DNA of 64,000 nt from Candidatus Limnocylindrales bacterium (GTDB taxonomy: Bacteria > Patescibacteriota > Microgenomatia > Levybacterales > UBA12049). The notes below the pieces were generated by a model. The model saw nothing but the letters and a program-made list of their open reading frames with translations. It ran no database searches and was not told the origin of the DNA. The DNA is taken from positions 20,222-84,221 of the forward strand of contig DATLDE010000012.1 of assembly GCA_035526025.1 (NCBI GenBank), given 5' to 3'. Position numbers and translations under genes: made by a program. This document shows positions 35,724-51,816 of this stretch, in pieces. The first letter of the stretch is position 1. Each line of letters starts with the position of its first letter.

Positions 35724-35737
35724 TTCAGAGTTCTAAA

Positions 35738-36985
35738 TTATGAATTCTGAATTAGGTCTGCTACTTTTTCTCCCATCTCAATTGCGTAGTTGGTGCCGCG
35801 GTCCCATGGATAGACCATATCCATATTGGCGAGATAAACATTTTTAATTGGAGTTACAAATTCAGGTTTAATTCTTGAATAATTAATAGGAAAGACAGGT
35901 TGGGCGAAGTAGCCAAGGAACATTTCGTAGTCAATTATATTTTTTTTCAGATCATACTCAGGATTTATTCTTTGAAGATAGGGCGTGAACTTTTTGAGTA
36001 TTTCCTTTTTATCCATTTTCAAAAGCGGATGGTCAATCGGCAAATAATTTACAAGCCACATCAAATTTTGTCCACCGTAGTGCTTGGGATCTACAAAATT
36101 GGTATGCTGGACAACTCCGACAAAGGGAAATTCAGAATCACTGACATTTAGCCAGTAGCTTTTCTTAAGAAACTTTTCCTTTGTGACGAGAAGCATGTTA
36201 AAGGCATGAAGATGGGGGATTTGGTTGATTTTGTCTTTGTAGTGATCAGGCAAATCAGGGAACATTTTCACAAATACAGCAAGAGGCGTAGTGACAATTA
36301 CTTTGTCAAACTTAGATATTAATTCCGGATTAAATGATTTACCAAGATTTATTGTTGCACCGTTTTCCTTTATTTTCTCAGCCAATTTTTCAGATAGACT
36401 CTGGTATCCACCTCCCAGATAGCCCAAGGAAAAAGTCCTTTTGTAAATGCGTGCCCAGAACCAAGCCATGTTAACTGTTTCTGCAAAAGGGCCAAACTTA
36501 CCGTTTAGAAGTGGTTTCCATACTTTTTGCCACACCTCTTCTCCGTAGTATTTTCGGATCCAATCACGGGCCGTGGTTTTTTCAAATTTAACAGCTATTT
36601 GTGGGGGAATAGATTTTAGGACAAGGCTTACAAAGCCCAATCTGATTCTGGAGACAAACGAAAGCGGTTTGAGATTTAATATGTCAAAAGGTGAGTTTAG
36701 GGGATAGATTTTATTTTCCAAAAATACATCAGTCCTGGGTTTTTTGAAAAAAAGATCATCACCAAGGCCAACTTCTTTTATAAGATTTATTGCATAGCTA
36801 TCATTTGCAAACCAGTGGTGATAGTGTTTTTCCAAAGACCATTCCCAATTTTTATTTTTAAATCCTACCGCAAGCCCGCCAACTCTATTTTCTTTTTCAA
36901 AAACAGTGACGTCATGTCCTTTTTCTGTGAGCCTTAAAGCTGCCGTAAGGCCTGTAAAACCCGCTCCTATTATTGCAATTTTCAT
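35738..36985 (-). CDS. FAD-dependent oxidoreductase (amine-oxidase / UDP-galactopyranose-mutase-like superfamily)
   Basis: MKIAIIGAGFTGLTAALRL...VTVFEKENRVGGLA dinucleotide-binding motif; 415 aa. The UGM-like possibility rests on its position in the glycosylation cluster and is inference. Confidence 0.7.
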   Translation of the reverse strand: MKIAIIGAGFTGLTAALRLTEKGHDVTVFEKENRVGGLAVGFKNKNWEWSLEKHYHHWFANDSYAINLIKEVGLGDDLFFKKPRTDVFLENKIYPLNSPFDILNLKPLSFVSRIRLGFVSLVLKSIPPQIAVKFEKTTARDWIRKYYGEEVWQKVWKPLLNGKFGPFAETVNMAWFWARIYKRTFSLGYLGGGYQSLSEKLAEKIKENGATINLGKSFNPELISKFDKVIVTTPLAVFVKMFPDLPDHYKDKINQIPHLHAFNMLLVTKEKFLKKSYWLNVSDSEFPFVGVVQHTNFVDPKHYGGQNLMWLVNYLPIDHPLLKMDKKEILKKFTPYLQRINPEYDLKKNIIDYEMFLGYFAQPVFPINYSRIKPEFVTPIKNVYLANMDMVYPWDRGTNYAIEMGEKVADLIQNS

Positions 36986-37015
36986 ATTTTAGATTATTAA
37001 CTTGAAGATATTTTA

Positions 37016-38434
37016 TCAGATAAGTAAGAAGATTAATCCCCCAATTCCGATGGTTAATATAGTTCCAATTATCCCCAAGATCAATGCTGAACTCCCGCTT
37101 GCAGGAATTGGTGGAATTGTTATGACAGTAGATGGTGAAAGGACCGGAGCGGAAATTATAAGTGTAGGCGCTATAACAATAGCAGTAGGTTGTGTTGAGG
37201 GCGCAAGAGTTGGTATGACAGTTGCCGTTGGAGCTTGAGTGGCTATGGGAGCTGTGACAGAAGGCGCAGGCCTTGTCGTGGGAGTTGGGGTAGTAGCTGA
37301 GGCTGGGGAAATTGATGGTTCTGTAAACTGACTGCCTTCTGCGAATACTGTAAACGAGCGAGTTAATGTCTGAAGGATGCCCTGCGCGTTTAGTGTTTTT
37401 ATTGTGATTTTATGAACTCCAGGTTCTAGCTTTGTATTCGGGCGGAATTGCCAGTTGCCATTCTGGTCTGATTGTACGGTTGCTGTGATCGGATCTGATT
37501 GGATGGTGATCTCAACATCGCTTTGAGGCAAAGCTTTGCCTTCAAATAGAGGCTGTTGATCTTCAAATTTTTCATTACTTGTTGGGGTAAGAATTTGAGG
37601 GCCAGACTGAGTGGTTTCTCCTTCCGGAAGTGCCGGGAATTCAGGAATTTTTGCTGATTCACTTGCTGATGAGGAGCCCACCTGTTCAATTGTAAAGTCG
37701 TAGTCTTTGGAAAGAATTATTGGTGGAATTGAGTCTGCCAAATTTGCAAAAAACGAAATTTTAGATTGCAACACTGAGTCATTTATCGTCATTGTTAGAA
37801 TGGATTTGTCATCAAGCTCAAGTGATCCTGATAAATCATTTTTTAATAATTTTTGGATGGTAAATTCATACTTGCCATCTGGTTTAACAAGCGATGATAT
37901 AAGTTGTGAGTCACTTGTTTTCAGATATGCTATAGCTTCATTTGGAGCCTTTGTTCCATCAATTGTTATAGCGCCTTTTACGGTAATGGACTTTGGAAGA
38001 GAAGTTCCCGCATTTGACGCAGTTGTTAATTCATAAGGAACACTATCTTTTTGAAAAATGCCATCACCTGAAATAACTGAAAAGAAGTACTTTGTTCCCG
38101 GATCAAGGCCGGTTAGATTGATGTAATGAGCCACATGTTGGGCAGGGGATTGAGCGTCGCGGGTATCAAATCCGACTTGACCAAGGCTTATATCTTTTCC
38201 ATATGACACGCTTCCAATAACGCTAGCATCTGTCGTAAAAGAAATAGTAGCCGAATTGTCAGTTATATTACTTATTTCTACATTTTTAGGAGTGTTGCCA
38301 AGCGCTGCCTTGCCCTCAAAGAGCACTACATTACCACTAAGCCAAAAGATAGAACCAATAGAAAGCAGTAGCACAAAAAACCCCAAAAATCTAGGTATTG
38401 GCTTGTTCCAGATCTTGTTATCGTTAAATGTCAT
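37016..38434 (-). CDS. Cell-surface protein: N-terminal anchor/signal, FN3-like + Ig-like (Big) domains, Pro/Thr-rich stalk, C-terminal TM anchor
   Basis: ATISFTTDASVIGSVSYG...YFFSV FN3-like; later DVEITIQSDP...HKITIKT Ig-like; C-terminal TPTPTTRPAPS linker and hydrophobic end ALILGIIGTILTIGIGGLIFLLI. Confidence 0.5.
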   Translation of the reverse strand: MTFNDNKIWNKPIPRFLGFFVLLLSIGSIFWLSGNVVLFEGKAALGNTPKNVEISNITDNSATISFTTDASVIGSVSYGKDISLGQVGFDTRDAQSPAQHVAHYINLTGLDPGTKYFFSVISGDGIFQKDSVPYELTTASNAGTSLPKSITVKGAITIDGTKAPNEAIAYLKTSDSQLISSLVKPDGKYEFTIQKLLKNDLSGSLELDDKSILTMTINDSVLQSKISFFANLADSIPPIILSKDYDFTIEQVGSSSASESAKIPEFPALPEGETTQSGPQILTPTSNEKFEDQQPLFEGKALPQSDVEITIQSDPITATVQSDQNGNWQFRPNTKLEPGVHKITIKTLNAQGILQTLTRSFTVFAEGSQFTEPSISPASATTPTPTTRPAPSVTAPIATQAPTATVIPTLAPSTQPTAIVIAPTLIISAPVLSPSTVITIPPIPASGSSALILGIIGTILTIGIGGLIFLLI

Positions 38435-38769
38435 TGTCCTTGTATTTGAAAAGAATCTTTTGGCGAAGGCAGTTGGGCAGGTGTGTCGGCCGAAGGGGAC
38501 GTTTGTATGGGTTGATTAGGATTAGTGCTCGCTGAGCCGCTTGCGGAATCAAGTTGGTATACTGGAATTACTTTTTTCCGAGTTTTAATCTTATCAAGTG
38601 ACTGGGTATTAAAAGCGGGATCAATTGGCGTGATTTGTAATTGTAAATCAGGTTCAATCGTTGAGTCCGCTCTGCCATGATAAATGTTAAAGCCTATCCA
38701 TAATGCAACAACTACAAATATCGATATTGAAATCCAAAGTAGGTCTTTTTGAGCTCTATTTTTTTTCAT
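38431..38769 (-). CDS. Small bitopic membrane protein downstream of pilO (possible PilP-like component)
   Basis: 112 aa, N-terminal TM, P/S/Q-rich C-terminal region; operonic with pilN-pilO. Confidence 0.35.
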   Translation of the reverse strand: MKKNRAQKDLLWISISIFVVVALWIGFNIYHGRADSTIEPDLQLQITPIDPAFNTQSLDKIKTRKKVIPVYQLDSASGSASTNPNQPIQTSPSADTPAQLPSPKDSFQIQGQ

Positions 38770-38785
38770 TTTTTTTTAGGTCAGA

Positions 38786-39400
38786 TTAATACTTGAAATA
38801 AGCTTTTCCCCTGAGATTTAAAATTAGCTGATTTGAGTCCGATGACTTACTAAGAGTAATTGATTCTACTGTCAGGACCCTACTGATATTGGTTAAATCT
38901 TTTGAAAAATCTATTAACTCTTGGTAGCTTCCCTCAGCCTCAAGTGAAAATCCAAAAGATAAAATTGCCTTACTCTTATTTGGAGTCAAAGGAGCCTCTG
39001 ACAAATCCAGTGATTTAATGGATATTTTTTTTTCTTTTGCCAAACCCAGTATTTCCCCTGCAAGAATTGGAGCCTTAGGGTTATTTGGTATCGCTTCCTG
39101 AAGCAGGGGCAAATCTGATTCAATTATTTTATATTGTTGCTGGAGGGAGTCCAGATTTTGAATTTTTGTTTTTAGATTTGCATAAACAAGATGACTATCA
39201 GCCAGTTGCTTTTTTAGCTTTACAATAGTTGAAATCGTTGGATTTATGGCAAAAATTCCAAAGAAGGACATTGCGAAAAAAGTAAGAATTAAGGTAGTTA
39301 TTATACGGGTATTTTCCTGTTTCATGCTTGGTAAGAGCTTTAGGTACTCGCGGTACCTGGCAATAGATGTGGTATTTAAGAAGTTTTTTGGGATTTTCAT
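38786..39400 (-). CDS. pilO: PilO-like type IV pilus assembly protein
   Basis: 204 aa; N-terminal TM, then coiled coil and ferredoxin-like C-domain, overlapping the pilN stop by 4 nt. Confidence 0.45.
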   Translation of the reverse strand: MKIPKNFLNTTSIARYREYLKLLPSMKQENTRIITTLILTFFAMSFFGIFAINPTISTIVKLKKQLADSHLVYANLKTKIQNLDSLQQQYKIIESDLPLLQEAIPNNPKAPILAGEILGLAKEKKISIKSLDLSEAPLTPNKSKAILSFGFSLEAEGSYQELIDFSKDLTNISRVLTVESITLSKSSDSNQLILNLRGKAYFKY

Positions 39401-39945
39401 AGTTTGGTGCCAAGTTGTTCAATTCGAGCTGTAATATCTGCATTTATTAAAGAGCTACTTGTTTTGGTCTCAATACTGCCTATGCTTACAGAGACAATTC
39501 CTGGGTAGTTTTTGAGGGTATTAACAAAAAGAGTCAGGGCATTTCCGTTAGGCGCTTGTGCCTCAATTTTTACAGTGCCACTTGAAATAACTAATTTTTT
39601 GAATGTGATTTTTGCTCGTCCCATCTCGATAATGTCAGATAAGATGAGGGAAGCATTATTGTTTTTATTTCCATATGTTTCGGTTAGAGCGAGTCTTGTT
39701 TGGATGTCGCGGAAAGCTTGTTCTTTCTGATACTGCTGAACAATAGTGCTATTATATTTAATATTGTCATGGAGATCTATGATTTTCATGTCAATAGAGA
39801 ACCTGTAAATGAATGTCCCTAGAGCAAGCGTTTCTGTGAGTATGATAAGGAGCCTTCCAATAGTTAAGGCCCACCCCAAAAATTGATCTACAAAGCCACC
39901 GTTTTTATTGGGAAGCAGGTTTATGGATTTTATTTTTTCTGCCAT
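39397..39945 (-). CDS. pilN: PilN-like type IV pilus assembly protein
   Basis: Canonical N-terminal INLLP motif (MAEKIKSINLLPNK), then TM and coiled coil; 182 aa. Confidence 0.55.
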   Translation of the reverse strand: MAEKIKSINLLPNKNGGFVDQFLGWALTIGRLLIILTETLALGTFIYRFSIDMKIIDLHDNIKYNSTIVQQYQKEQAFRDIQTRLALTETYGNKNNNASLILSDIIEMGRAKITFKKLVISSGTVKIEAQAPNGNALTLFVNTLKNYPGIVSVSIGSIETKTSSSLINADITARIEQLGTKL

Positions 39946-40118
39946 AGCGACAAATCGCTAACTTTTAGCGACTACTTTTAGCATATGTAAAGCGAATTAA
40001 AAAGTCAAAGAAAAAATGGAGGAGTCTGGAAATTAGAGTTTGCTTATGCTATACTCGTGTTAATCCCAAAACTTTTCGTAAAAAACGAGAAGACGAGGGA
40101 TGATTTTTTTATAAATTT

Positions 40119-42245
40119 ATGGCTGATCAATCAAGAAACGTACCGCTAGATAAAATCCGTAACATCGGCATTATTGCCCACATTGACGCTGGAAAAACTA
40201 CCACAACTGAGCGAATTCTGTTTTATACGGGAAAAACCTATAAAATCGGGGATATTGATGAGGGTAATACTCAGATGGACTGGATGGAGCAGGAAAAAGA
40301 GCGAGGAATCACTATCGTTTCAGCCGCAACCACTGCTTTCTGGACACATGCTCAGAATCCAACAGATCCTTACCGCATTAACATAATTGATACACCAGGA
40401 CACGTTGATTTTACAGCAGAGGTTGAGCGCTCTCTACGTGTTCTTGATGGAGGGATTACAGTTCTTGACGCCGAAGAGGGTGTTCAGTCACAGTCAGAGA
40501 CGGTATGGCGCCAAGCTGATAAATACAAGGTTCCACGTCTTTGCTTTGTTAACAAAATGGACAAATTGGGTGCTGATTTTCTTTACACAGTTGGTACTAT
40601 TGAAGACCGACTCGGTGCAAATTGTGCCATAATGGTTCTTCCAATTGGTGCTGAGAACACATATGTCGGAAACGTAGATCTTCTTTCGCGCAAATCTTAC
40701 ACTTGGAACTCTGAAGAGTTGGGAGCAAAATATGATGTAAAAGACGAGGTCCCAGAGGACATGAAGGACAAGGTTGAGGAGTACAGGTCTAAATTAATTG
40801 AAAAGATTTCAGAAACAGACGATGCGTTACTTGAAAAATATCTTGGAGGAGAAGAGCCAACAGTTGACGAGCTTAAGGCAGCACTCCGCGCCGCTGTTAT
40901 TGCATATAAGTTAGTTCCGATTTATGCAGGTACGTCACTAAGAAATAAAGGCGTACAGCCACTTCTTGATGCAGTTATAGATTATCTCCCCTCACCTGTT
41001 GATCTTAAAGAGGTAAAAGGTCTTCATCCCAAGACTGGTGAGGCAGTGCTTCGTCAATTAGTTCCTGATGAAGCATTTTCAGGACTGGCTTTTAAAATTC
41101 AGAATGATCCACACGTTGGTAAGCTTTCGTATTTTAGAGTGTATTCAGGAACTTTGGTTTCTGGTTCATATATCTACAACAGCACAAAAGGTGTTAGAGA
41201 GCGCGTTGGTCGGATACTTCTTATGCATGCCAACAACCGCGAAGAGGTTAAGGAAGCCTATGCTGGAGAAATTGTCGCAATTGTAGGCCTTAAAGACACT
41301 ATAACAGGAGACACTCTTTGTGATGAGGCCAAGCCAATTGTTCTAGAGCAGATTACGTTCCCTGAGCCTGTTATCTCACTTGCAATTGAACCAAAAACAA
41401 AATCAGACCAGGAGAAGCTTGGGTTCTCTATAAAAAGACTAACTGAGGAAGACCCGACTTTCTCTGTTAAATCCAACCCGGAAACAGGCCAGACTATCAT
41501 CTCAGGAATCGGAGAGCTTCAGCTTGAGATTATGGTTGACAGGATGAAGCGGGAATTTGGTGTAGAGGCCAACGTCGGTGCTCCTATGGTTGCTTATAAA
41601 GAAACAATTGAGGCTGAGACTGAGGCTGAGGGAAAATACATCAAGCAGTCAGGGGGTCGCGGACAATACGGCCATTGTTACTTGCGTGTGACACCTGTTC
41701 CACGAGGAGAGGGATACTCATTTGTTAATGCCATAAAAGGTGGAGCGATCCCAGCTGAATTTGTCAAAGCTGTTGAAAAGGGAGCCAAAGAAACTCTTGA
41801 AAACGGTGTGCTTCTTGGATATCCACTGATTGATGTCAAAGTTACCTGTTATGACGGATCTTATCACGATGTTGATTCAAGTGAGATTGCATTTAAAATC
41901 GCGGCAAGTCAGGCAATCCAGGCTGCTACCAAAAAAGCTGGTATCACCCTTCTTGAGCCTATTATGAAAGTTGAAGTTACAACTCCATCTGATTATATGG
42001 GAGAAGTAATTGGGGACTTGTCATCAAAAAGAGCACAGATACTAGGATCTGAGGAGAAAAATAAAGCAACGATTATCATGGCTATGGTTCCTCTTGCTGA
42101 ATTTTCAGGATATGCCACACAGCTTCGATCACTCACTCAGGGAAGAGCTCACTACTACATGGAACCTTCTCACTACGAAGCAGTGCCCAAGAACATTGTC
42201 GAAGGCCTCCTCGCCAAGTCCACATTTACAGGAAGAGTAGAGTAA
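40119..42245 (+). CDS. fusA: Translation elongation factor G
   Basis: G1 motif [24 protein letters not shown], and full five-domain length of 708 aa. Confidence 0.97.
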
Positions 42246-42265
42246 AAACTCCATACATCCCATAG

Positions 42266-42294
42266 TTGACAGCAAGTATTTTATATTATATAAT
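42266..42294 (+). promoter_or_regulatory. Textbook sigma70 promoter TTGACA-17nt-TATAAT placed so that transcription would start at or next to the ATG at 42301 (leaderless)
   Basis: TTGACA at 42266-42271, TATAAT at 42289-42294, ATG at 42301, no SD. Confidence 0.45.
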
Positions 42295-42300
42295 ACAGCT

Positions 42301-42591
42301 ATGATTAGAGAGCGTGAACCCTTTGTGGGTCCTATGATGGGCCAATTTAGATTGGAAAGAGTGGATGCTATGGAGCAGGCTGCAGGTGAATTTGATATGC
42401 CCTTTGAGCGCATAGCAGTTGAAGGCGAGACCTTGTTGACTGACACTGGAAAAAGAATTGATATTATGCAAGGTCATATGTTTGTGAGCGTTGGTACCGG
42501 CCTAGAAGGTTGGCTTACTCGATTTTGGAAACGGGTTGATGAGATATCACCTAAAGCCCCTCCAATAAAAGTATCCCAAGGGAAAATCTAA
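42301..42591 (+). CDS. Hypothetical small protein, GC-elevated (~45%), Arg/Glu-rich; first gene of the fusA-tuf insertion
   Basis: 96-aa ORF with a perfect upstream promoter and composition unlike the host background; no recognised motif. Confidence 0.35.
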   Translation: MIREREPFVGPMMGQFRLERVDAMEQAAGEFDMPFERIAVEGETLLTDTGKRIDIMQGHMFVSVGTGLEGWLTRFWKRVDEISPKAPPIKVSQGKI

Positions 42592-42625
42592 AAGACCGAA
42601 AAACCACACTAAAGTTTAATTAATA

Positions 42626-42697
42626 ATAGAAAGTAAAAGTTATATCAGTTATAATATCCTCATGTCTACTGTTCTCGGGGTTTTTGCACATCCAGAT
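42626..42697 (+). repeat. Direct repeat copy A: duplicated promoter + first 12 codons of the PIG-L deacetylase gene (MSTVLGVFAHPD then stop)
   Basis: ~80% identity (first 14 nt, TATAAT box, and codons 1-12 nearly identical) to 43245-43316. Confidence 0.8.
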
Positions 42698-42733
42698 ATT
42701 TCATAACTTCTCCAAAAGTGCTATAATTTAGTC

Positions 42734-43009
42734 ATGTCACTCAAGTTCCCAATCACTATCAAAATCATCTACGAAAAAGAGTCAAAGGATGCACCATTTG
42801 TCGCATATATTCCTGAATTTGATGTTTCATCATGTGGTAAAACAGAAGAGGAAGCAAAAAGCAATGTAAAAGAAGTGCTGGAAATTACCCTTGAAACAGT
42901 CAAAAAGCAGAATAAGCTTGAAGAATTTTTGAAAGAAGCAGGAGTTTCTGTCAAAAAGCCAAGTCTATTCCCCAAAATCAGTTTTGAGCCATTTGTGTTC
43001 TCTGCCTAA
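42734..43009 (+). CDS. hicB: Type II toxin-antitoxin system HicB-family antitoxin (UPF0150-type, short)
   Basis: 91 aa; ITIKIIYEKESKDAPFVAYIPEFDVSSCGKTEEEAKSNVKEVLEITLE is typical of the HicB RNase-H-like fold; immediately followed by hicA. Confidence 0.65.
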   Translation: MSLKFPITIKIIYEKESKDAPFVAYIPEFDVSSCGKTEEEAKSNVKEVLEITLETVKKQNKLEEFLKEAGVSVKKPSLFPKISFEPFVFSA

Positions 43010-43240
43010 ATGCCTGCAATAAAGCCAATTCATCATAAAAAATTAGTAGAGTTTTTTGAAAAGTCAGGTTGGAAGTATGAGCGGACTAAAGGTGATCATA
43101 TAATTTTCACCAAAAAGGGATATCTCAGGCCAGTGGTAATTCCAATGTATAAAACAATTCCGGTTTTTATAATCAAAAACAATCTGAGAACCGCAAAGAT
43201 AAGTAATGAGGAATACTTCAAGGGATTAAAATTAAATTAG
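43010..43240 (+). CDS. hicA: Type II toxin-antitoxin system HicA-family mRNA interferase toxin
   Basis: 76 aa; KKLVEFFEKSGWKYERTKGDHIIFTKKG...PVVIPMYKTIP matches the HicA/YcfA family (GSHH-type region as GDHI). Confidence 0.7.
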   Translation: MPAIKPIHHKKLVEFFEKSGWKYERTKGDHIIFTKKGYLRPVVIPMYKTIPVFIIKNNLRTAKISNEEYFKGLKLN

Positions 43241-43244
43241 ACCA

Positions 43245-43316
43245 ATAGAAAGTAAAAGGGAGTTCCGCTATAATATTCTCATGTCTACAGTTCTCGGAGT
43301 ATTTGCGCATCCGGAT
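43245..43316 (+). repeat. Direct repeat copy B: native promoter/5' end of PIG-L deacetylase gene
   Basis: Pairs with 42626-42697. Confidence 0.8.
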
Positions 43317-43934
43317 GATGAAGCTTTTTTTACAGGCGGTACGCTTGCCACACTTGCCAAAGAGCACGATGTCTATACGATTTGTATCACAGATGGTGCT
43401 GCTGGGGAGAATAGTAGCAATAAAGAAGGCGAACTCTCAGAAATTAGGCGCGATGAGCTTCTGGATGCTGGAAAAATTCTCGGTGTAAAACAGACTTTTT
43501 TCCTAGACTATAAAGATGGAACTCTCTCAAACAATCTCTATCATGATATCGCAGAGAAGATACAAAAAATTACAGATGAACTGAAGCCTGAATTGCTCCT
43601 TACATTTGAGCTCCGGGGTATATCAGGACATATTGATCATATGGCGACATCTGTGATCACCTCCTATGTTTTTGAGAAGGCAGAATACATAAAAGAGCTT
43701 TGGTATTTCTGTAATACAGAGCAAATTAAAGAAACAGTTGGAGATTATTATATTTTTTGGCCACCAGGATACAAAGATTCTGATATCTCAAAGACTATTG
43801 ATATCTCTCCTGTTTGGGACACAAAAGTCTCAGCGATGATAGCTCACAACTCTCAAATGCATGATGTGATGCGTATTCTCAAGCGTGCTGAAACCCTGCC
43901 AAAAGAAGAAAATTTCATAATAATTAAAAAATAA
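43281..43934 (+). CDS. PIG-L/LmbE family N-acetylglucosaminyl deacetylase
   Basis: VFAHPDDEAFFTGGTLA ... HIDH motifs; TATAAT 10 nt upstream of the ATG (leaderless-like). Confidence 0.8.
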   Translation: MSTVLGVFAHPDDEAFFTGGTLATLAKEHDVYTICITDGAAGENSSNKEGELSEIRRDELLDAGKILGVKQTFFLDYKDGTLSNNLYHDIAEKIQKITDELKPELLLTFELRGISGHIDHMATSVITSYVFEKAEYIKELWYFCNTEQIKETVGDYYIFWPPGYKDSDISKTIDISPVWDTKVSAMIAHNSQMHDVMRILKRAETLPKEENFIIIKK

Positions 43935-43938
43935 CAGT

Positions 43939-44331
43939 ATGGCTTTTTCAAAATATAGAATTCTCATATATTCAGAAAATCCGGACAAGCTGATGGAATT
44001 TTATCGTGATGTCTTGGGCTTTGAACTGCTTGAACATTTAGATATTCCAGGAGACTATGGCTATATGCTTAGGGTTATTGATGATCTCTGGGTTTGGATT
44101 GGCAAGCACTCTGAAATTAAAGGAAAAGCCAAGGAAAATTTCAGGCATTTATTTAATCTTTATCCAGAAGAAGGAGTTGGATACTGGTTTAATAAAATCA
44201 AGAATAGTCCTCAAGTGAAAATTATTGCTGAGCCATTTTTGGCTCCTTTCTCAACTCCTGACAATCAGGTTTGGTTCTGTACTTTTCTTGATCCAGAAGG
44301 AAATTGCTGGCAATTTGTGGGTAAGAAGTAG
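43939..44331 (+). CDS. VOC/glyoxalase-bleomycin resistance family protein
   Basis: 130 aa; N-terminal ...LMEFYRDVLGFEL pattern typical of the VOC fold. Confidence 0.5.
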   Translation: MAFSKYRILIYSENPDKLMEFYRDVLGFELLEHLDIPGDYGYMLRVIDDLWVWIGKHSEIKGKAKENFRHLFNLYPEEGVGYWFNKIKNSPQVKIIAEPFLAPFSTPDNQVWFCTFLDPEGNCWQFVGKK

Positions 44332-44349
44332 AAAAGGTATAATAGGGAA

Positions 44350-45447
44350 ATGAAAAAGTTTCTTTTTCTGATGTCCCTGCTGGTGGTTTTTCTGTTTTTT
44401 GGCTTTAAAGTTGTTCGGCAGAATGTAAAAAATGATCTAGCCGCTCCAGTCTCTCTTCCCTCCCCAACGCCCATCCAGACATCTATTAAAAACGTAAAAG
44501 GAGTTCGTAGCGCGGATATTAAAAAGTCTATTTTTGTGCCTTATTGGGGGCTAAATGGCGAGGATATTGAGGATAAGTACGATAGCTATTTATACTTTGG
44601 AGTAGTCCCGACAAGATCAGGCATAAATAAGAAAGAAGCAGGGTATATAGGTATAGATAAATTTTTAAAAGTAACTCCAAAAAGCTCTGAGAAAAAACTA
44701 GTTATTCGGATGCTAGATCCTGACATAACCTTTCCGGTTTTGAAGGATACCGCAGCACAAAAAGTTGTTATTCGTGACAGCTTAAGGATTGCGATAGAGC
44801 ATGGATTTTCAGGAGTAGTTCTTGATCTGGAAGTTTCTGCGGTTCCATTTGACTCTCTCATTAAGCAGATAAATGAATTTAGCAAATTATTTTATGAGGA
44901 ATCAAAAGATAAAGACTTGGGTTTTGCAATCATGTTTTATGGTGATACTTTTTACAGAATTCGCCCCTTTGACATAAAAGCTTTATCAGCAAATGCGGAT
45001 GAATTTTTAATCATGAGCTATGATTTCAGCAAAAGTCGTGGAAATCCAGGTCCTAATTTCCCGCTTCGGGGTAAAGAAGTTTATGGCTACGATATGACAA
45101 CTATGATTGATGATTTTTCACGATATCTGCCAGATGAAAAGACAACTATTGTCTTTGGTTTATATGGTTATGATTGGGAAGTTGATGACAAGGGGAATGC
45201 AGTTGGAACAGGGGAGGCGAAATCCTATCAAAAAATAAGCAAGGAATTTTTAGGAAAATGTGAATACAAAGAGTGCAGTGTTAAGAGCAAGAATGATTCA
45301 AGGGAAACTGAGATTCGCTATACAGATAGCGAGAATAAAAAGCATATTGTCTGGTTTGAGGATATGGAATCAGTTTCCGCAAAACAGAATTTCTTAAAAG
45401 CAAAGGGGATTAGCAATTTTTCTTTCTGGGCCTACTCGTATTTTTAA
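44350..45447 (+). CDS. Secreted glycoside hydrolase family 18-like protein (degenerate DxDxE motif)
   Basis: Signal peptide; GFSGVVLDLE (GH18 DGxDxDWE-like region retaining D-x-E) and LIMSYDF (MxYD motif). Confidence 0.45.
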   Translation: MKKFLFLMSLLVVFLFFGFKVVRQNVKNDLAAPVSLPSPTPIQTSIKNVKGVRSADIKKSIFVPYWGLNGEDIEDKYDSYLYFGVVPTRSGINKKEAGYIGIDKFLKVTPKSSEKKLVIRMLDPDITFPVLKDTAAQKVVIRDSLRIAIEHGFSGVVLDLEVSAVPFDSLIKQINEFSKLFYEESKDKDLGFAIMFYGDTFYRIRPFDIKALSANADEFLIMSYDFSKSRGNPGPNFPLRGKEVYGYDMTTMIDDFSRYLPDEKTTIVFGLYGYDWEVDDKGNAVGTGEAKSYQKISKEFLGKCEYKECSVKSKNDSRETEIRYTDSENKKHIVWFEDMESVSAKQNFLKAKGISNFSFWAYSYF

Positions 45448-47700
45448 TTACTCAACAATTTCACTTACTTCAACGGCTGTTAAGCCAGTCCTTAACAAAG
45501 GCTTATCAAATACTGGAGGAGCAGGAGTGTAATTTGGTTCCTGATCAAGTTGCCTGAAGTAAAAAACAACGTTTAGGTAATTATCAGGTTCAGGCAAAAA
45601 CGTAAGCGGGAGAATTTGCTCTGAAGTTGCCTGATCGAAAAAGGATATGAATACATAAGGACTGTTAGTCTTGGTCTTGCCAACCCGTACTAGGTCTTTT
45701 ATTTCTTTTTCATTTAATCCAAGTTTTTTAGCATATTCTCTGAGCACTTTTTCTATCTCTGTTTTTTTAGTAATAGATCCGCGGGTAGGGGGATTGAGTT
45801 TCCTTAGGTTTGAAAGATAGTCATAGTTAATGGCTTGATATGAGTTTCCGTTAATCAGCATTTTCCCATTGTTCCCTAGGGTAACATCATAACCGCTATT
45901 GTAAGAAGGTTTATCATTATAAACTGCTGTTAAGATCTGAACTCTCACGTTTTGGCCCTCATTTCCGTATAAATACAGAGGCGATTGGTTGCATTTTCCT
46001 TCTGCTCTGAGTTGGACCCTTCTATCCATAATGCACTGGTTGCGGTTATAGCCCATTATTCCACACTGCTCAAGTGCCAATGAGGTACAATTTACGGTTT
46101 TAGTTAATTTATAGGTCTGACGGGTGGGCACTGGACCTGTGGGAATAGGCGTTGGGATTGGTTTTGTCTGTTGCTCTTGTCTTTTTATAGTTAGAGACGG
46201 TTTGAAAAGAAAGGTTTTAAGTTGAAGATTTTCCTGAGATGGTTTATCTGAATAAAGATCAATAATTGTTACATTGGGATCTGATGGGTTTCCGCCTTGT
46301 GCATATGCTTTCATGCCGAGCACCTTTTGAAAATAATTTGAGGGAAGAGTTGTGACATACTGAAAATGTGTGTCGCTTACCGGGATTCTGAAGGCTTGAT
46401 TAGTTTTGGGATCGAAATTGAAAAGCTGTGTCAGTGATGGCGCGTACACTTCTCCTAAATTCCCTAGGCTTGATGCAGAATCGTCAATTGTTGCAATTAG
46501 ATATTTATCAGTAGTAAAGCTTGAAACAAGGGAATTGGATCCTGGAATTTTCAATCTGTTTGGTTTTTGACTTGTAAGATCGTATCTAAAAAGTCCATTT
46601 TTGTTTTCGATTTTTGAAATTACAGTAATCATAATGTTATTTGACGCTCCGCCCCATTCCGCTGTTGGATAAATGTCATTGTTTGATAGGTTAGTGAGCT
46701 TCCTGCGAGCTAGAGTTGACGTGTCTAGAAGCTCAATTGTGTTAGGAGTTAAAAGAGCCTGGCGAAATCCCTCCGGAGCCGCTTTACCATCACCATTCTT
46801 ACCATCATATCCTGCAAAAACAAGAAACTTTCCATCATGCGATAAGGATGGCTGCGTTCCATAAGAGCCTTCTTTCATTTGGTCCAGTTCCCTCTTATTG
46901 CTGCCTGTAAAATCGGAAACACCCATTCCGTATGCCCAGCCTGCTCCGCCGTTGGGGTCATTTGGCAGGAATTTATCCGTAAATACTTTTCCGTCATTAA
47001 GTATGGCCCGGGGATAATGAATTGGCTCGGTTGCCAGCTCGTCGTACAATAGCTGTTTATTGCCCGGAGTGGATAATTTAACTGCAAATACCCGGGAGCG
47101 GCCACCTTGTAATACTTCAGATCTAGGCGCAAATCTTACTTCCCAAATTACCATGTATTCTTTGTTGGGAGAAAGAATATAGTCATCAATTCCAAATCCC
47201 GGGGAGGCAGTAACTAGTGTCTTTGATGACTTTTCTTTTATCTGAAAACTTGTGATTTGCGTTCCATAATCTCTGTTATCAGTTTGATTAATAAATATCA
47301 AATTTTCAGGGGATAATACGCTGACTTTTTTGATATTAAAAGGGAGAGTTGCGATTTGAGCTGATTTATTTGATAGAAGGTCAATTGATGTTATTACAGA
47401 TTGTTCACCCTTCCACGACCCGTACACAATCGTATTTGAGGTCTTAAATTTCTCGATTATTGCTTGATTTTCTTTTTGTTTTTGGGCTGATGTTTTTGGG
47501 CTTTGCGAGTTTTCCTGTACGGTATTTATCTCATCTTCATTTTTGATAGAAGTTTTTGTTGAAAATAAAAGGATTGTAAAGACAAATATAAGCGCAAGAA
47601 ATACAATACCAGAAGTCAAAAGAATTGTTTTTTTTGAAAATCTCCCGTGTTTAGGGATTGATTCAGGGGATTCTGGGTTAGTTATGTAAGTTTCGGACAT
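45448..47700 (-). CDS. Large membrane-anchored surface protein, beta-propeller (PD40/TolB-like) region + Cys-containing C-terminal domain; paralog A
   Basis: 750 aa; N-terminal TM; LSHDGKFLVFAGYDGKNGDG PD40-like repeats; conserved C-terminal ~200 aa shared with the upstream paralog. Confidence 0.55.
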   Translation of the reverse strand: MSETYITNPESPESIPKHGRFSKKTILLTSGIVFLALIFVFTILLFSTKTSIKNEDEINTVQENSQSPKTSAQKQKENQAIIEKFKTSNTIVYGSWKGEQSVITSIDLLSNKSAQIATLPFNIKKVSVLSPENLIFINQTDNRDYGTQITSFQIKEKSSKTLVTASPGFGIDDYILSPNKEYMVIWEVRFAPRSEVLQGGRSRVFAVKLSTPGNKQLLYDELATEPIHYPRAILNDGKVFTDKFLPNDPNGGAGWAYGMGVSDFTGSNKRELDQMKEGSYGTQPSLSHDGKFLVFAGYDGKNGDGKAAPEGFRQALLTPNTIELLDTSTLARRKLTNLSNNDIYPTAEWGGASNNIMITVISKIENKNGLFRYDLTSQKPNRLKIPGSNSLVSSFTTDKYLIATIDDSASSLGNLGEVYAPSLTQLFNFDPKTNQAFRIPVSDTHFQYVTTLPSNYFQKVLGMKAYAQGGNPSDPNVTIIDLYSDKPSQENLQLKTFLFKPSLTIKRQEQQTKPIPTPIPTGPVPTRQTYKLTKTVNCTSLALEQCGIMGYNRNQCIMDRRVQLRAEGKCNQSPLYLYGNEGQNVRVQILTAVYNDKPSYNSGYDVTLGNNGKMLINGNSYQAINYDYLSNLRKLNPPTRGSITKKTEIEKVLREYAKKLGLNEKEIKDLVRVGKTKTNSPYVFISFFDQATSEQILPLTFLPEPDNYLNVVFYFRQLDQEPNYTPAPPVFDKPLLRTGLTAVEVSEIVE

Positions 47701-47714
47701 GATACTATTTTTAA

Positions 47715-49949
47715 TTATTCAACGATTTCACTAATTTCTATAGCTGTAAACCCTGATCTGTTTATAGGTTTCTCAAAAGTCTGTGGAATTGGTGAATAAT
47801 TAGGTTTTGTATTAAGCAGTTTGAAATAAAACACAACATTTAGATAATTATCTGGGGTAGGGGCAAATGAAAGGGGGAGTATGTTGGTTGATGTTTCGTG
47901 ATCAAAGAAAGATATAAATACGTATGGAGTTGTTACTTTATTCTTTCCTGATTTTACCAAATAATCTGTTTCTTTCGTATTTAGCCCTAATTTTTTGGAG
48001 TATTCTCGAAGAACCCTCTCAACTCCCATGCGTGGCACTATGGTTCCTTTGGTAGGTGGATTTATCCTTCTGAGGTTGGAGCGGTAGTCGTAATTTAGTC
48101 CTTCATAGCTTTGTCCATTGACCAGCATTTTACCCTCTTCTTGGAGGGTTACACTATATCCATCAGAGTATTTTGGTATATCGTTATAAATTGTTGCCTG
48201 CACCCTAACTTTTACCTGTTCCCCAGTTGACCCATATAAATAGAGAGGTGATTTGTTGCATACGGCTTCAGGAGTTCCTTTGGTTGCCCTATTTGCATCC
48301 CACGCTTTGCTATGACAGTCTCTGAATCCATCTGAGTCTTCCTGATAACCCATCGCAAGGCATTGCTCTGTTGCAAGGTCCCGACAGGAAACAGTTTTTG
48401 TAAGAGTCGGAAGGCTGCGTACTGGTGTAGGAGCATTTGGGGTATTTGGAGGAGTTGTTGGTTTTGGGGGTGTACTTTGCTGTTTTTCCCTGACTGGTGC
48501 AAGTGCTGGTTTCATCAAAAATGTTTTAAGCTGGAGATTTTCCTGCGATGGCTTGTCAGAATAAAGGTCAATTATGGTCACATTGGGTTGTCCGGGGTTG
48601 CCTCCTTGAGCATATGCAATCCCTAATACATTTTGAAAATAATTTGACGGGAGTACTGTAATGAATTGCGCCAGAGAATTTCCAAGCCTGATGTTCTGCA
48701 GATCTCCTGTGGTACTGTCTTGAGTATAAAGTGTTGTTAGGGAAGCAGCATATTCTTCGCCAAGATTTGCAAGTGATGATCTTGAATCATCCGATATTCC
48801 AATAAGAGATATGGTTGGTGATAAATTACTGATAAAGGCGTAAGGAGGTTGAGAATTTTCTGGGAGAATAACTTTTTTCAAAGATTTTGAAGAGGTGTTA
48901 TATGTAAATAATCCGCTCTCGCCATCTATTTTTGAAAGGAGGGTTACGATGATACTTCCCGAAAGATTGTCCCAGAAAACATTTGAATATATATTGCTGT
49001 TTGGAAGATTTTCAAGTCTACTTCTTTGAAGCGTTGTTGTATTGAGTAGCTCAACTGTATTGGGAGTCAGAAGAGCCTGACGTATCCCGCCTTTTATAAC
49101 TTTTCCATCTCCAAGTGATCCGTCATACCCTGCAAAAACCAGCGAATTTCCATCAGGAGACAGGAAAGGTTGGGTCCCGTAGGTCCCATGGACCATTGAT
49201 TCGACGTCCTTTTTGTTGCTTCCGTCAAAATCAATAACACCCATTCCGTATGCCCATCCCATGCCTGAACTAGGATCATTTGGGAGGAATTTATCGGTGA
49301 ATACTTTTCCGTTATTAAGTATGGCTTTTGGATAATGGATAGGTGTCGTATTGGCAACCTCATCATAAAGTAAGCGTTTCAGAGATGGGTTAGAAAGATC
49401 CACTGCATAAACCCGAGATCTTCCTCCTTGTAGAATTTCTGACCCGCTTGCAAAGGATACCTCCCAAATGGCCATGAATTTCTTGTTTGGGGAGAGTATG
49501 TAATCATCAATTCCAAATCCATTGTCGGCTGGAATGTTTGCTTTTTCTTTTTTATCTTTTAGCTCATAAATTTTAATTTGTTTTCCGTGGTCACGTATAT
49601 TTGTATCATCAATATAGGCAAGTGAATTGGAATTAAGGACGCTTACTTTTTTGATGCTGATTGGCAAGGAAGCTATAACTGATGAGTTTAGGCTACTCAA
49701 ATCTACAGCAGTGATCTCAGAATTTGAGCCGGTCCAGCTTCCATACACAATTGTATTAGGGGCTATTGGCCTAGTATTACCCGAAGGAGTAGGTCTTTGA
49801 GCTTGGTTTGGATCAACTGGATTACCTGAGTTTGGGTTGTTCCGAACTGTCGTAAAACCTGCAGCGCCTAGAACTAGGACGATAACTATGAATGCAATCC
49901 ACCCCAAGGGGTTTGTGCGGGGAGTTTGGGCAGCCTCGTTTTTATCCAT
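47715..49949 (-). CDS. Large membrane-anchored surface protein, paralog B (tandem duplicate of 45448..47700)
   Basis: 744 aa; collinear similarity with paralog A, e.g. IVYGSWTGSNSEITAVDL vs IVYGSWKGEQSVITSIDL, and C-termini ...GFTAIEISEIVE vs ...GLTAVEVSEIVE. Confidence 0.55.
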   Translation of the reverse strand: MDKNEAAQTPRTNPLGWIAFIVIVLVLGAAGFTTVRNNPNSGNPVDPNQAQRPTPSGNTRPIAPNTIVYGSWTGSNSEITAVDLSSLNSSVIASLPISIKKVSVLNSNSLAYIDDTNIRDHGKQIKIYELKDKKEKANIPADNGFGIDDYILSPNKKFMAIWEVSFASGSEILQGGRSRVYAVDLSNPSLKRLLYDEVANTTPIHYPKAILNNGKVFTDKFLPNDPSSGMGWAYGMGVIDFDGSNKKDVESMVHGTYGTQPFLSPDGNSLVFAGYDGSLGDGKVIKGGIRQALLTPNTVELLNTTTLQRSRLENLPNSNIYSNVFWDNLSGSIIVTLLSKIDGESGLFTYNTSSKSLKKVILPENSQPPYAFISNLSPTISLIGISDDSRSSLANLGEEYAASLTTLYTQDSTTGDLQNIRLGNSLAQFITVLPSNYFQNVLGIAYAQGGNPGQPNVTIIDLYSDKPSQENLQLKTFLMKPALAPVREKQQSTPPKPTTPPNTPNAPTPVRSLPTLTKTVSCRDLATEQCLAMGYQEDSDGFRDCHSKAWDANRATKGTPEAVCNKSPLYLYGSTGEQVKVRVQATIYNDIPKYSDGYSVTLQEEGKMLVNGQSYEGLNYDYRSNLRRINPPTKGTIVPRMGVERVLREYSKKLGLNTKETDYLVKSGKNKVTTPYVFISFFDHETSTNILPLSFAPTPDNYLNVVFYFKLLNTKPNYSPIPQTFEKPINRSGFTAIEISEIVE

Positions 49950-50083
49950 AGTATACTAATATTGTTATGCAATATAGATTCTTTGTCAAGCATTTTTCCC
50001 TCTTGACGGTATAAAAAAAATATTGTATCATTACATTCATCTCATTCTCATTGAGAACTGGGATTTATTTTTTTGTATTAACT

Positions 50084-51268
50084 ATGGCAGACACAAAATT
50101 TAACAGAAGCAAACCACACGTAAACATCGGAACAATCGGTCACGTCGATCACGGCAAGACCACTCTATCTGCTGCAATTGCAACAGTTCTCTCCAAAGCA
50201 GGTGGGGGAAAAGCAATGAAATATGAAGATATCGATAATGCCCCTGAAGAAAAAGCCCGCGGAGTCACAATTAACATTTCCCACTTAGAGTATGAAACAG
50301 AAAAACGCCATTACGCTCACATTGATGCTCCAGGACACGCTGATTATGTTAAGAATATGATTACAGGAGCTGCTCAAATGGACGGAGCAATTCTAGTTGT
50401 ATCAGCACCAGATGGACCTATGCCTCAGACTAGAGAGCACATCCTTCTAGCAAAGCAAGTTGGAGTTCCATCAATTTTAGTTTTTCTTAACAAATGTGAC
50501 ATGGTTGATGATGAAGAGCTTCTTGATTTAGTTGAGATGGAAGTCCGTGAACTTCTTAACAAATACGAATTCCCAGGTGACACAACTCCTATCATCCGTG
50601 GATCTGCGCTTAAAGCGCTTGAAGGTGATGCTGCTGCAGAAGCTGCAATAACAGAACTGATGAAAACAGTTGATGAGTATATTCCAACACCTGAGCGCGC
50701 GCTAGATAAGCCATTCCTGATGCCTGTTGAAGATGTTTTCTCAATTAAAGGACGTGGAACTGTTGTAACAGGAAGAATTGAAAGAGGAGTTGTAAAGGTG
50801 AATGAAGCTGTTTCAGTAGTCGGACTTGATAAAAATAAAGAATCAGTGGTAACAGGAGTAGAGATGTTCAAGAAACAGCTTGAAGATGGACAAGCAGGAG
50901 ATAATGTAGGATTACTTTTGAGAGGACTTGAAAAAACAGATGTTGAACGCGGACAAGTTATCGCAAAGCCAGGAAGCATCACTCCTCATACAGAATTTGA
51001 AGCAGAAGCATATATCCTTACAAAAGAAGAAGGAGGACGTCACACACCTTTCTTTACAGGATATCGACCGCAATTCTATATCAGAACAACCGATGTTACT
51101 GGAACCGCAACTCTTCCAACAGGCGTTGAGATGGTAATGCCAGGTGATAACACAAAAATGACAGTCAAGCTTATTGTGCCAGTTGCTCTTGAAGAAGGAG
51201 TCAGATACGCGATCAGAGAAGGTGGAAAGACAGTTGGAGCAGGAGTTATTACAAAGATTATTAAGTAA
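50084..51268 (+). CDS. tuf: Translation elongation factor Tu
   Basis: [39 protein letters not shown] motifs; start placed at the ATG at 50084 rather than the upstream TTG of the ORF track. Confidence 0.97.
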
Positions 51269-51281
51269 AAAACTTAATAAG

Positions 51282-51304
51282 AACCCGGGAAACCGGGTTT
51301 TTTG
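51282..51304 (+). terminator. Rho-independent terminator after tuf
   Basis: aacccgg-GAAA-ccgggtt perfect 7-bp stem with tetraloop, followed by a T5 run. Confidence 0.7.
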
Positions 51305-51330: not shown

Positions 51331-51639
51331 ATGCCGAAAGGAAGAATCAGAGTCAGATTAAAAAGTTATGACGCACGCGTCTTAGATGCTTGTTGTCAGC
51401 AAATTCTTGATTCCGTAATCAGAACAGGCGCCAAAGTTATTGGTCCAGTTCCGCTTCCAACAGACAGATCCCTATACGCTGTAAACAAATCACCTTTTAT
51501 TGACAAAGACGCAAGAGATCATTTCGAAATTAGAGTTCATAAAAGGCTGATTGATATTATGTCGCCAACAGACAAAACTATTGACAGTTTGACAAATCTA
51601 TCACTCCCAGCAGGAGTTGATGTTGAGTTGAAAATGTAG
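51331..51639 (+). CDS. rpsJ: 30S ribosomal protein S10
   Basis: MPKGRIRVRLKSYDARVLD...; SD AGGAG 8 nt upstream. Confidence 0.95.
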   Translation: MPKGRIRVRLKSYDARVLDACCQQILDSVIRTGAKVIGPVPLPTDRSLYAVNKSPFIDKDARDHFEIRVHKRLIDIMSPTDKTIDSLTNLSLPAGVDVELKM

Positions 51640-51755
51640 TTTTAATTTAATAATAGATGCCCAAAACAATTAAATACATGGTAGATCGATTAAAAATGCT
51701 TAAGCTAAGCCACCCCGATTAGAGGGGATCAGATCACAAAGGATTGTGAAATATG

Positions 51756-51787
51756 ATGATAGCCTTAAGGGGTTATCATTTTTTTTT
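51756..51787 (+). terminator. Strong intrinsic terminator/attenuator hairpin 30 nt upstream of rplC, inside the S10 operon
   Basis: atgatagcc-ttaagg-ggttatcat: 9-bp stem (one G.U pair), 6-nt loop, followed by 8 T. Confidence 0.55.
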
Positions 51788-51816
51788 GACGAAAAAACAA
51801 AACAAATAAAATTATT

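Follow-up and report, generated by a model that had tools for sequence, protein, structure and literature searches.

The 64,000-nt window analyzed here (contig DATLDE010000012.1, positions 20,222 to 84,221) carries two genes of the str operon, fusA and tuf, which encode elongation factors EF-G and EF-Tu. They are separated by an interval of 7,838 bp (42246–50083). An earlier interpretation made from the DNA letters alone (the sequence-only reading) had described a str operon split by an accessory insertion of about 7.8 kb, and both the separation and the listed contents were borne out: orf96, a hicBA toxin-antitoxin pair, genes for a PIG-L deacetylase, a VOC protein, and a GH18-like protein, and two paralogous genes for surface proteins (A and B) on the minus strand (Table 1). 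The genes at either end of the gap are canonical. The fusA product scores below the cut-offs of the EF-G2 and Tet-protection models, which marks it as canonical EF-G and not a paralogue. The TIGR00485 alignment begins at residue 12 of the TTG-initiated tuf open reading frame (ORF); from this match and the alignment with relatives, the true start is therefore the ATG at 50084. A terminator-like hairpin follows tuf (51279–51302, terminator scan), and the S10 genes rpsJ (51331–51639), rplC (from 51817), and rplD (from 52709) lie 3′ of it. Directly upstream of fusA is a minus-strand PilO/PilN-like pilus cluster, and tblastn searches with the B. subtilis S12 and S7 proteins gave no match to rpsL or rpsG in the window. 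The operon is therefore broken on both sides of fusA.

Table 1. Genes and sequence features of the fusA–tuf interval and its borders (window coordinates; promoter-like sites are sequence predictions)
Feature	Position	Strand	Description
fusA promoter-like site	40027..40055	+	TGGAAA-17-TATACT, extended -10 (TGc)
fusA	40119-42245	+	Canonical EF-G, 708 aa; TIGR00484 1052 bits (cut-off 659); all EF-G domains in Pfam
orf96 promoter-like site	42266..42294	+	TTGACA-17-TATAAT, 12/12 consensus; -10 ends 6 nt before ATG
orf96	42301-42591	+	Small protein of a rare ~90-aa family
Left repeat copy	42625-42697	+	Relic: PIG-L promoter and first 12 codons, reads MSTVLGVFAHPDIS-stop
hicB-like antitoxin candidate	42734-43009	+	91 aa; N-terminal UPF0150/HicB-like domain only
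hicA toxin	43010-43240	+	76 aa; PF07927 40.4 bits (cut-off 27), profile positions 2-58 of 58
Right repeat copy	43244-43316	+	Working PIG-L promoter and gene 5′ end
PIG-L promoter-like site	within 43244-43316	+	TAGAAA-17-TATAAT, 6 nt before ATG
PIG-L family deacetylase	43281-43934	+	217 aa; PF02585 108 bits
VOC/glyoxalase-fold protein	43939-44331	+	130 aa; PF00903
GH18-like protein	44350-45447	+	365 aa; PF00704 68 bits; hydrophobic N-terminus (anchor or signal)
Surface paralogue A	45448-47700	-	750 aa; transmembrane helix, beta-propeller, Pro-rich linker, C-terminal alpha/beta domain
Surface paralogue B	47715-49949	-	744 aa; 53% identical to A
tuf promoter-like site	50003..50031	+	TTGACG-17-TATCAT
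tuf	50084-51268	+	EF-Tu, 394 aa; TIGR00485 740 bits (cut-off 522)

A comparison set of 80 species-representative loci was assembled, 61 of which have tuf downstream of fusA. The gap is shorter than 600 bp in 51 of these 61, consistent with the earlier statement that adjacency of the two genes is the norm. Of the GTDB species representatives, eight share at least 72% EF-G identity with the window, and none of them has a short gap: their gaps are 2.4, 6.9, 5.0, 3.5, 7.6, and 4.7 kb, and L006 and L007 have no tuf within 10 kb. On the other side of fusA, the rpsG–fusA junction is widened by 1.2–7.1 kb in L003 and L005–L008, and rpsL–rpsG are not found within 10 kb upstream of fusA in L001, L002, and L004. 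The break recurs across relatives and is therefore a trait of the clade, not a single-strain event. The gap genes of the more distant members are ordinary chromosomal genes, encoding CDP-alcohol phosphatidyltransferase, CarS-like, DAG kinase, PHP, AP endonuclease, PvlArgDC, EamA, and MazG proteins, as well as a histidine kinase with a response regulator. The nearest EF-G relatives are metagenome-assembled genomes (MAGs) of Candidatus Levybacteria and Patescibacteria, and the contig is assigned to the Levybacteria, within the candidate phyla radiation (CPR), on the basis of EF-G, tuf, rpsJ, and local synteny. The best GTDB species representative is L001 (OY970292.1, a 1.14-Mb chromosome), with 95% EF-G identity. 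Nothing specific on a split str operon in CPR was found in the literature.

Further relatives were found via surface-protein homologues and a PIG-L scan of metagenomes. Their flanks are syntenic with those of the window (pilus cluster upstream, tuf-rpsJ-rplC-rplD downstream), and the content of the gap is a mosaic (Table 2).

Table 2. Gene order of the gap in the window and its relatives (minus-strand surface genes of the window and their homologues in brackets)
Genome	EF-G identity to window	Order
Window		fusA, orf96, relic, hicBA, PIG-L, VOC, GH18, [A, B minus strand], tuf
L090	97%	fusA, GNAT, PIG-L, VOC, GH18, [A only], tuf
L001	95%	fusA, (32 bp), PIG-L, VOC, GH18, tuf
L083/L084	94%	fusA, 207-aa ORF, PIG-L, GH18, [A, B], GDSL lipase, tuf
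L093	94%	fusA, 127-aa ORF, PIG-L, VOC, GH18, tuf
L092	93%	fusA, 120-aa ORF, PIG-L, VOC, 91-aa ORF, GH18, tuf
L094	93%	fusA, (32 bp), PIG-L, GH18, contig end
L095	85%	fusA, (51 bp), PIG-L, ICMT-like, GH18, [578-aa surface homologue], contig end
L002	82%	GH18 right before tuf; other genes after fusA
L004	80%	GH18 right before tuf; other genes after fusA

The GH18-like gene is the most widely shared occupant, present in 10 relatives (L001, L002, L003, L004, L083, L090, and L092–L095). PIG-L orthologues stand at fusA in eight (92% identical in L001, 91% in L090, and 89% in L092; also in L093, L094, L083, L095, and L002), and VOC is present in four to five, among them L001, L090, L092, and L093, and absent from L083, L094, L002, and L004. 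The PIG-L, VOC, and GH18 genes of L001 occupy the same place at 63–92% identity to the window. Surface genes lie in the gap as a pair in L083/L084, singly in L090, and as a 578-aa homologue in L095; the gaps of L001, L002, L004, L092, and L093 have none. Both orf96 and hicBA are found in the gap of the window only and are absent from all relatives examined. Among close relatives, presence is therefore steady for PIG-L and GH18 and variable for orf96, hicBA, and the surface genes, and these differing distributions make GH18, then PIG-L, old residents of the gap and VOC a younger one.

The distributions also conflict with each other: VOC groups the window with L001, L090, L092, and L093, and the surface pair groups it with L083. 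The fusA gene was tried as a means of ordering events and was set aside, as the window, L001, and L083 are approximately equidistant (81%–83% nucleotide identity, with 23/16/20 parsimony-informative sites) and stay a trichotomy. Repeated gain, loss, or replacement is required on any tree. The single accessory insertion of the sequence-only reading is not supported: the units differ in phylogenetic distribution, with GH18 and PIG-L found in relatives down to approximately 80% EF-G identity. That reading had named as its own refutation a finding of the same genes in relatives with no compositional anomaly; this is what was found for the PIG-L, VOC, and GH18 core, but not for orf96 and hicBA, and only partly for the surface pair.

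In L001, the tuf promoter, "...ttttccctcttgacg...", comes immediately after the GH18 stop codon. The window differs: there the GH18 stop codon (45445–45447) abuts that of A (45448), and the tuf promoter sequence resumes at approximately 49984. Comparison of the two genomes shows that the 4.5-kb surface pair fills precisely the space from the GH18 stop to the promoter that follows. The same abutting GH18/surface-gene junction is present in L083, and the orthologous B-then-A pair of L083/L084 has the same place and orientation as in the window, with 70% and 62% identity. Across the relatives, this junction is either empty or holds one or two surface-protein genes. A second location for these genes, the galT...WecG-MreB locus, was found in L081 (the L001 genome), L085, L089, and L091, and L085 has a B-then-A tandem there. 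A distance tree places the gap copy of L090 together with the copies that L089 and L091 have at the galT locus (69%–70% identity); it is only 61%–65% identical to the gap copies of the window and L083 and does not group with them, so the tree mixes both loci. Divergence of the surface genes is fast: identity falls to approximately 60% at an EF-G identity of 97% between species. The surface genes have, in addition, moved to another locus or undergone replacement more than once. The galT/MreB locus, which was sought to tell a copy from a move of the surface genes, does not lie within the window.

The junction between fusA and PIG-L is either empty or filled by one of five different cargos in nine related genomes. 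It is empty (32–51 bp) in L001, L094, and L095, where the TATAAT box of PIG-L lies approximately 15–35 nt past the fusA stop. The cargos are a 207-aa ORF in L083, a GNAT gene in L090, a 120- or 127-aa ORF in L092 and L093, and orf96 with hicBA in the window, and every one of them is placed between the fusA stop and the PIG-L promoter. In the window, hicBA is flanked by a 73-nt direct repeat whose copies are 84% identical. The copies were aligned with the native L001 and L083 junctions: the right copy is the working PIG-L promoter with the 5′ end of the gene and the left copy is a relic of the same region; the duplication left PIG-L intact and gave hicBA an upstream copy of the promoter. The 36-nt coding part of the repeat occurs at these two sites only, against 0 expected by chance. 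Next to the -10 box, the left copy has the allele of L083 (cagTTATAAT) and the right copy that of L001 and L090 (ccgCTATAAT). The promoter-region motif AATAGAAAGTAAAAG was considered as a dispersed repeat and rejected, as it is present in the two repeat copies only.

The genes at both ends of the gap appear to have promoters of their own. For fusA, the -10 box is invariant and the -35 box conserved in the window, L001, L090, and L083. The sequence-only reading had given the fusA promoter as TTGCTT...TATACT; its TATACT box is retained here, but TTGCTT lies just 4 nt from that -10 box and was replaced by TGGAAA. Its tuf promoter (TTGACG...TATCAT) does exist, but it is not new, being nearly identical in L001, where it comes right after the GH18 stop with no insert beside it, and in L090. 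A perfect TATAAT box stands exactly 6 nt before the ATG of orf96, hicB, PIG-L, and GH18, at box/start positions 42294/42301, 42727/42734, 43274/43281, and 44343/44350; the window has five such cases in all. More loosely, a TATAAT-like box lies 4–9 nt upstream of 12 of 70 gene starts in the window (3642 and others in addition to these four), compared with 4.2% of all ATG triplets. The TATAAT-N6-ATG arrangement is conserved for PIG-L in eight species and for GH18 in four, and the L090 GNAT gene has TATAAT-N6-GTG. This spacing suggests leaderless, self-contained transcription units, and that leaderless mRNAs are common in the lineage; a literature search found nothing specific on leaderless genes in CPR. 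It looks as if fusA and tuf, and probably also rpsJ, are each transcribed as a unit of their own. The start of VOC, 4 nt after the PIG-L stop, makes co-transcription of those two genes probable.

Signs of a mobile element were sought throughout. None of the eight gap ORFs matches an integrase, recombinase, or transposase in Pfam, NCBIfam, or PHROG, and no integrase or transposase domain was found in 30 scanned gap ORFs of relatives; the products of these ORFs are of ordinary kinds, such as enzymes of lipid synthesis, a two-component system, and PHP. The window has no tRNA genes and no Rfam family, and the integrase remnants and att-like repeats that the sequence-only reading had proposed for 42.25 and 50.0 kb were searched for and not found, with no direct repeat linking the two positions. 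PHROG matches in the gap are confined to the toxin-antitoxin pair, PIG-L, and GH18, with no phage-structural signal. The compositional shift claimed earlier is likewise absent: GC content is 0.385 in the interval and 0.386 in the rest of the window, and all gap genes fall within 2 standard deviations for GC and GC at third codon positions. The supposedly GC-rich orphan, orf96, is mildly GC-rich (0.443, z = 1.8) but not anomalous, being close to fusA (0.435). Of the proposed integration hotspot, the turnover of content inside a conserved neighborhood remains; a mobile-element signature does not, and the block is old and layered.

Taken together, we consider it probable (roughly 0.78) that the fusA–tuf gap is an ancient str-operon break of the Levybacteria clade that is now a zone of gene gain, loss, and replacement at multiple sites. 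The str operon would have decayed first, followed by piecemeal build-up and exchange of small promoter-bearing units at boundaries between a stop codon and a promoter. With fusA and tuf each on its own conserved promoter, the stretches from stop to promoter would be free to take up DNA. The gap of the window would then be a stack of at least five separately acquired units: the GH18-like gene, the oldest; PIG-L, with VOC added later; the B-A surface pair between the GH18 stop and the tuf promoter; hicBA, inserted along with duplication of the PIG-L promoter and 5′ end; and orf96. Entry may have been by recombination of taken-up or intragenomic DNA, either illegitimate or aided by short or flanking homology, with no integrase involved. 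Weak selection for operon continuity in small, presumably slow-growing cells could have let the break persist.

Several points weigh against this interpretation. The mode of entry is deduced from absent element signatures and one duplication scar only. The word hotspot here compares the gap with its conserved flanks and not with the average of the genome. As VOC and the surface pair group the genomes differently, some apparent insertions may be losses elsewhere or replacements by interspecies recombination. The promoters, leaderless starts, and monocistronic expression are predictions from the DNA. Finally, GH18 keeps its place beside tuf, and PIG-L beside GH18, over deep divergence, which could reflect selection on placement and not neutral accumulation.

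That last point leads to an alternative that we regard as unlikely, in which selection keeps envelope genes beside highly expressed, growth-coupled translation genes so that envelope synthesis would follow growth rate, for example through read-through or chromosome context. The GH18 gene does stay in the gap, usually right before tuf, down to approximately 80% EF-G identity (L002, L003, and L004), the PIG-L–GH18 linkage is held in eight genomes, and envelope-related products (PIG-L, the GH18-like protein, and the propeller pair) recur among close relatives. Read-through would also fit the terminator scan, which detected no terminator-like hairpin from fusA to orf96 or from GH18 to the gene that follows it. 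However, each unit has a promoter-like site of its own, and the surface genes are on the opposite strand here and at another locus in other species. The cargos between fusA and PIG-L (toxin-antitoxin pair, GNAT, and small ORFs) are functionally unrelated, and the gaps of distant relatives hold unrelated genes such as those for a two-component system and lipid synthesis.

A more specific and rather improbable proposal is that the stop-codon/promoter boundaries in the fusA–tuf gap of these Levybacteria act as landing pads for small cassettes, each consisting of a leaderless promoter and one or two ORFs, captured through short homology without an integrase. On this view, a Campbell-type single crossover of circular or taken-up DNA would have left the 73-nt duplication as its scar. 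If true, this would amount to integron-like cassette capture in CPR bacteria that relies on competence and host recombination alone.

It is very improbable that one recent event placed a genomic island or integrative element of about 7.8 kb between once-adjacent fusA and tuf. Such an event would account for the toxin-antitoxin pair, for the restriction of orf96 and hicBA to the window, and for the opposite-strand genes that break the same-strand run. However, the gap has no integrase or transposase, tRNA, or boundary repeats and the same GC content as its surroundings; its components are unevenly spread, with PIG-L, VOC, and GH18 already in place in L001; and the tuf promoter predates the surface-gene insertion. 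The synteny data already largely refute this explanation. A chimeric contig, in which assembly or binning joined fusA and tuf to unrelated sequence, can be put aside almost entirely, despite the Limnocylindrales label of the MAG against its Levybacteria affinity and the frameshift errors in the closest complete genome, L001, because the order fusA...PIG-L...GH18...tuf with the upstream pilus cluster recurs in independent ENA, NCBI, and JGI assemblies (L001, L083, L084, L090, and L092–L095), L083 and L084 likewise have the B-A pair joined at the GH18 stop, and there is no GC discontinuity.

The favored reading, an old break with piecemeal turnover, has precedents. Translation operons of Gammaproteobacteria are separated by multigene insertions made up of non-mobile genes, and the space from a stop codon to the next promoter has been argued to be a neutral insertion target (Brandis, Cao and Hughes 2019, PMC6735719). 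The Levybacteria locus is similar in that the inserted genes are ordinary non-mobility genes and that the surface pair and the junction cargos lie between a stop and the next promoter; it differs in that the break falls within the str operon (fusA|tuf and rpsG|fusA), in a CPR lineage, and with many alternative cargos at one site. It offers a clean natural case in which DNA was inserted precisely into the space from a stop codon to the promoter that follows, the neutral target proposed by Brandis et al. The specific features of the present case are the within-operon break on both sides of fusA, its clade-wide occurrence in CPR, and a single junction that is empty or holds one of five cargos in nine genomes.

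The str operon of Rickettsia prowazekii is reportedly split as well, fusA lying at one locus and the only tuf gene at another, where it is joined to the S10 operon; the two genes are said to have come to lie far apart after recombination between two tuf copies. Common to both cases are that fusA and tuf are not co-transcribed (a prediction here), that rpsJ follows tuf, and that the genome is small and reduced. In contrast to Rickettsia, order and orientation are kept in the window, and separation would have come about by local accumulation of 2–8 kb. Chromosomal hotspots, or flexible genomic islets, are regions of variable content between conserved core genes, often with no recognizable mobile element. 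The fusA–tuf gap resembles them in that core genes bracket varying accessory genes, no mobile element is recognizable, and a toxin-antitoxin pair is among the cargo. It differs in having single-gene units of 0.3–4.5 kb and several insertion points within 8 kb; furthermore, the comparison made here is of species at approximately 80% nucleotide identity, not strains. The locus is a new example of known phenomena and not a new kind of element or mechanism. Its interest is that the str operon, among the most conserved bacterial neighborhoods, has decayed across a whole CPR lineage. The broken-operon gaps, filled differently in each species, make a useful marker region for comparing Levybacteria, and they call for caution with binning and annotation methods that presume str/S10 synteny in CPR genomes.

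The hicBA pair is itself a recurrent unit. HicA has 849 homologues; the best besides the query are 74%–80% identical and, where a source is named, come from Patescibacteria. At these identities, none points to a recent donor. In L087 and L088, whose hicA genes are 78% and 77% identical to that of the window, a 91-aa gene stands directly before hicA, making a conserved bicistronic unit, and a unit of 91-aa and 76- to 80-aa genes is found at unrelated loci beside other toxin-antitoxin systems in other Patescibacteria. The window hicB stop (43009) abuts the hicA start (43010). HicA reads G-D-H at residues 28–30, the place of the conserved, catalytic Gly-x-His of HicA toxins. HicB antitoxins have a partial RNase H-like fold, usually together with a DNA-binding domain. 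The hicB candidate has a weak match to PF21748 (23.7 bits, cut-off 27.3) and to PHROG 497 "HicB-like" (2e-5), and its sole PDB sequence match, TTHA1756, is weak (E = 0.68). The pair is like known HicAB type II modules in that HicA exceeds the Pfam threshold, abuts a small HicB-like gene, and recurs with it elsewhere. It is unlike them in that the HicB candidate has just 91 aa, stays below the Pfam cut-off, and has no recognized C-terminal DNA-binding domain. Growth arrest by the toxin and its neutralization by the antitoxin, the hallmark of such modules, are predictions here.

No Pfam, NCBIfam, or PHROG match was found for orf96. A search of 1.84 billion representatives gave 11 matches at E ≤ 0.001, one of them the query itself, and the five homologues that were retrieved (four of 89–101 aa and one of 232 aa) have a common motif. 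There is no orf96 at the fusA|PIG-L junction of L001, L083, L090, or L092–L095. Derivation of orf96 as a fragment of the cargo at this position in L083 was ruled out, as the two have no similarity. A 91-aa ORF between VOC and GH18 in L092 (3416–3691, minus strand) shows weak resemblance to orf96 (pairwise E 9e-4), with a shared C-terminal "FWK+V" motif. Tentatively, the orf96 family may recur as a regional cargo at varying positions and strands.

PIG-L scores below the equivalog cut-offs for BshB2 (90.9 vs 195 bits), BshB1 (67.5 vs 182), and MshB (60.7 vs 224), and only general PIG-L family membership is therefore assigned. The catalytic motif of GH18 enzymes is DxxDxDxE; at this site the GH18-like protein reads F-S-G-V-V-L-D-L-E, in which the last Asp and the Glu alone are retained.

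Surface paralogue A was predicted by AlphaFold with a mean pLDDT of 75. The model has a transmembrane helix (residues 23–46), a propeller (89–453, mostly above 85), a disordered Pro-rich linker, and an alpha/beta domain (572–750). Foldseek against the PDB returned generic propellers for A (oligogalacturonate lyase, TolB, and prolyl oligopeptidase); the model indicates no function beyond a generic propeller, and the C-terminal domain was given no separate search. The paralogues have no Pfam match beyond a sub-threshold PD40 repeat, which is weak on B, and no PDB sequence match. Their homologues number 135, and those with a named source are mostly from Levybacteria or other Patescibacteria.

Some further observations concern the surroundings of the gap and the source genomes. 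Proteins of the source MAG (VM077_04680/04685, on a 96.9-kb contig) are labeled "Candidatus Limnocylindrales bacterium" (Chloroflexota) at NCBI, which conflicts with the Levybacteria affinity; the contig is probably mis-binned or mislabeled. In L001 (14502–15992), tuf and rpsJ match the window proteins only piecewise, tuf at 73% identity with the alignment starting at residue 28 and rpsJ spread over two overlapping frames, in what looks like indel errors of a long-read assembly. In L081 (OY970292.1, 574–597 kb), rplJ–rplL are followed by an aminotransferase and unrelated genes, with no rpoB–rpoC, and lie approximately 250 kb away from fusA; the supercluster of translation and transcription genes seems to be fragmented genome-wide, beyond fusA–tuf alone.

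The minus-strand cluster upstream of fusA (33151–39945) encodes PilN-like and PilO proteins, a 112-aa ORF, an Ig/fn3-domain protein, an amine oxidase, and a PMT_2 glycosyltransferase, and is syntenic in L001, L002, L004, L083, and L093–L095. A plus-strand ORF inside it (34950–35723) has the highest GC content nearby (0.456, z = 2.1) and no family match. Downstream, the 177-nt rpsJ–rplC spacer (51640–51816) contains a terminator-like hairpin (51755–51780) and then a promoter-like site, TTGACG-18-AATTAT (51786–51815), so the S10 operon, too, may be split into separate units. The L3 ORF (51817–52746, 309 aa) and the L4 ORF (52709–53548, 279 aa) far exceed the usual length of approximately 210 aa, and Pfam covers residues 86–187 only of L3 and 83–273 only of L4. 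Relatives have long L3 and L4 genes as well (322–333 and 255–273 aa, respectively), and the long ORFs may be lineage-specific extensions or have mis-set starts.

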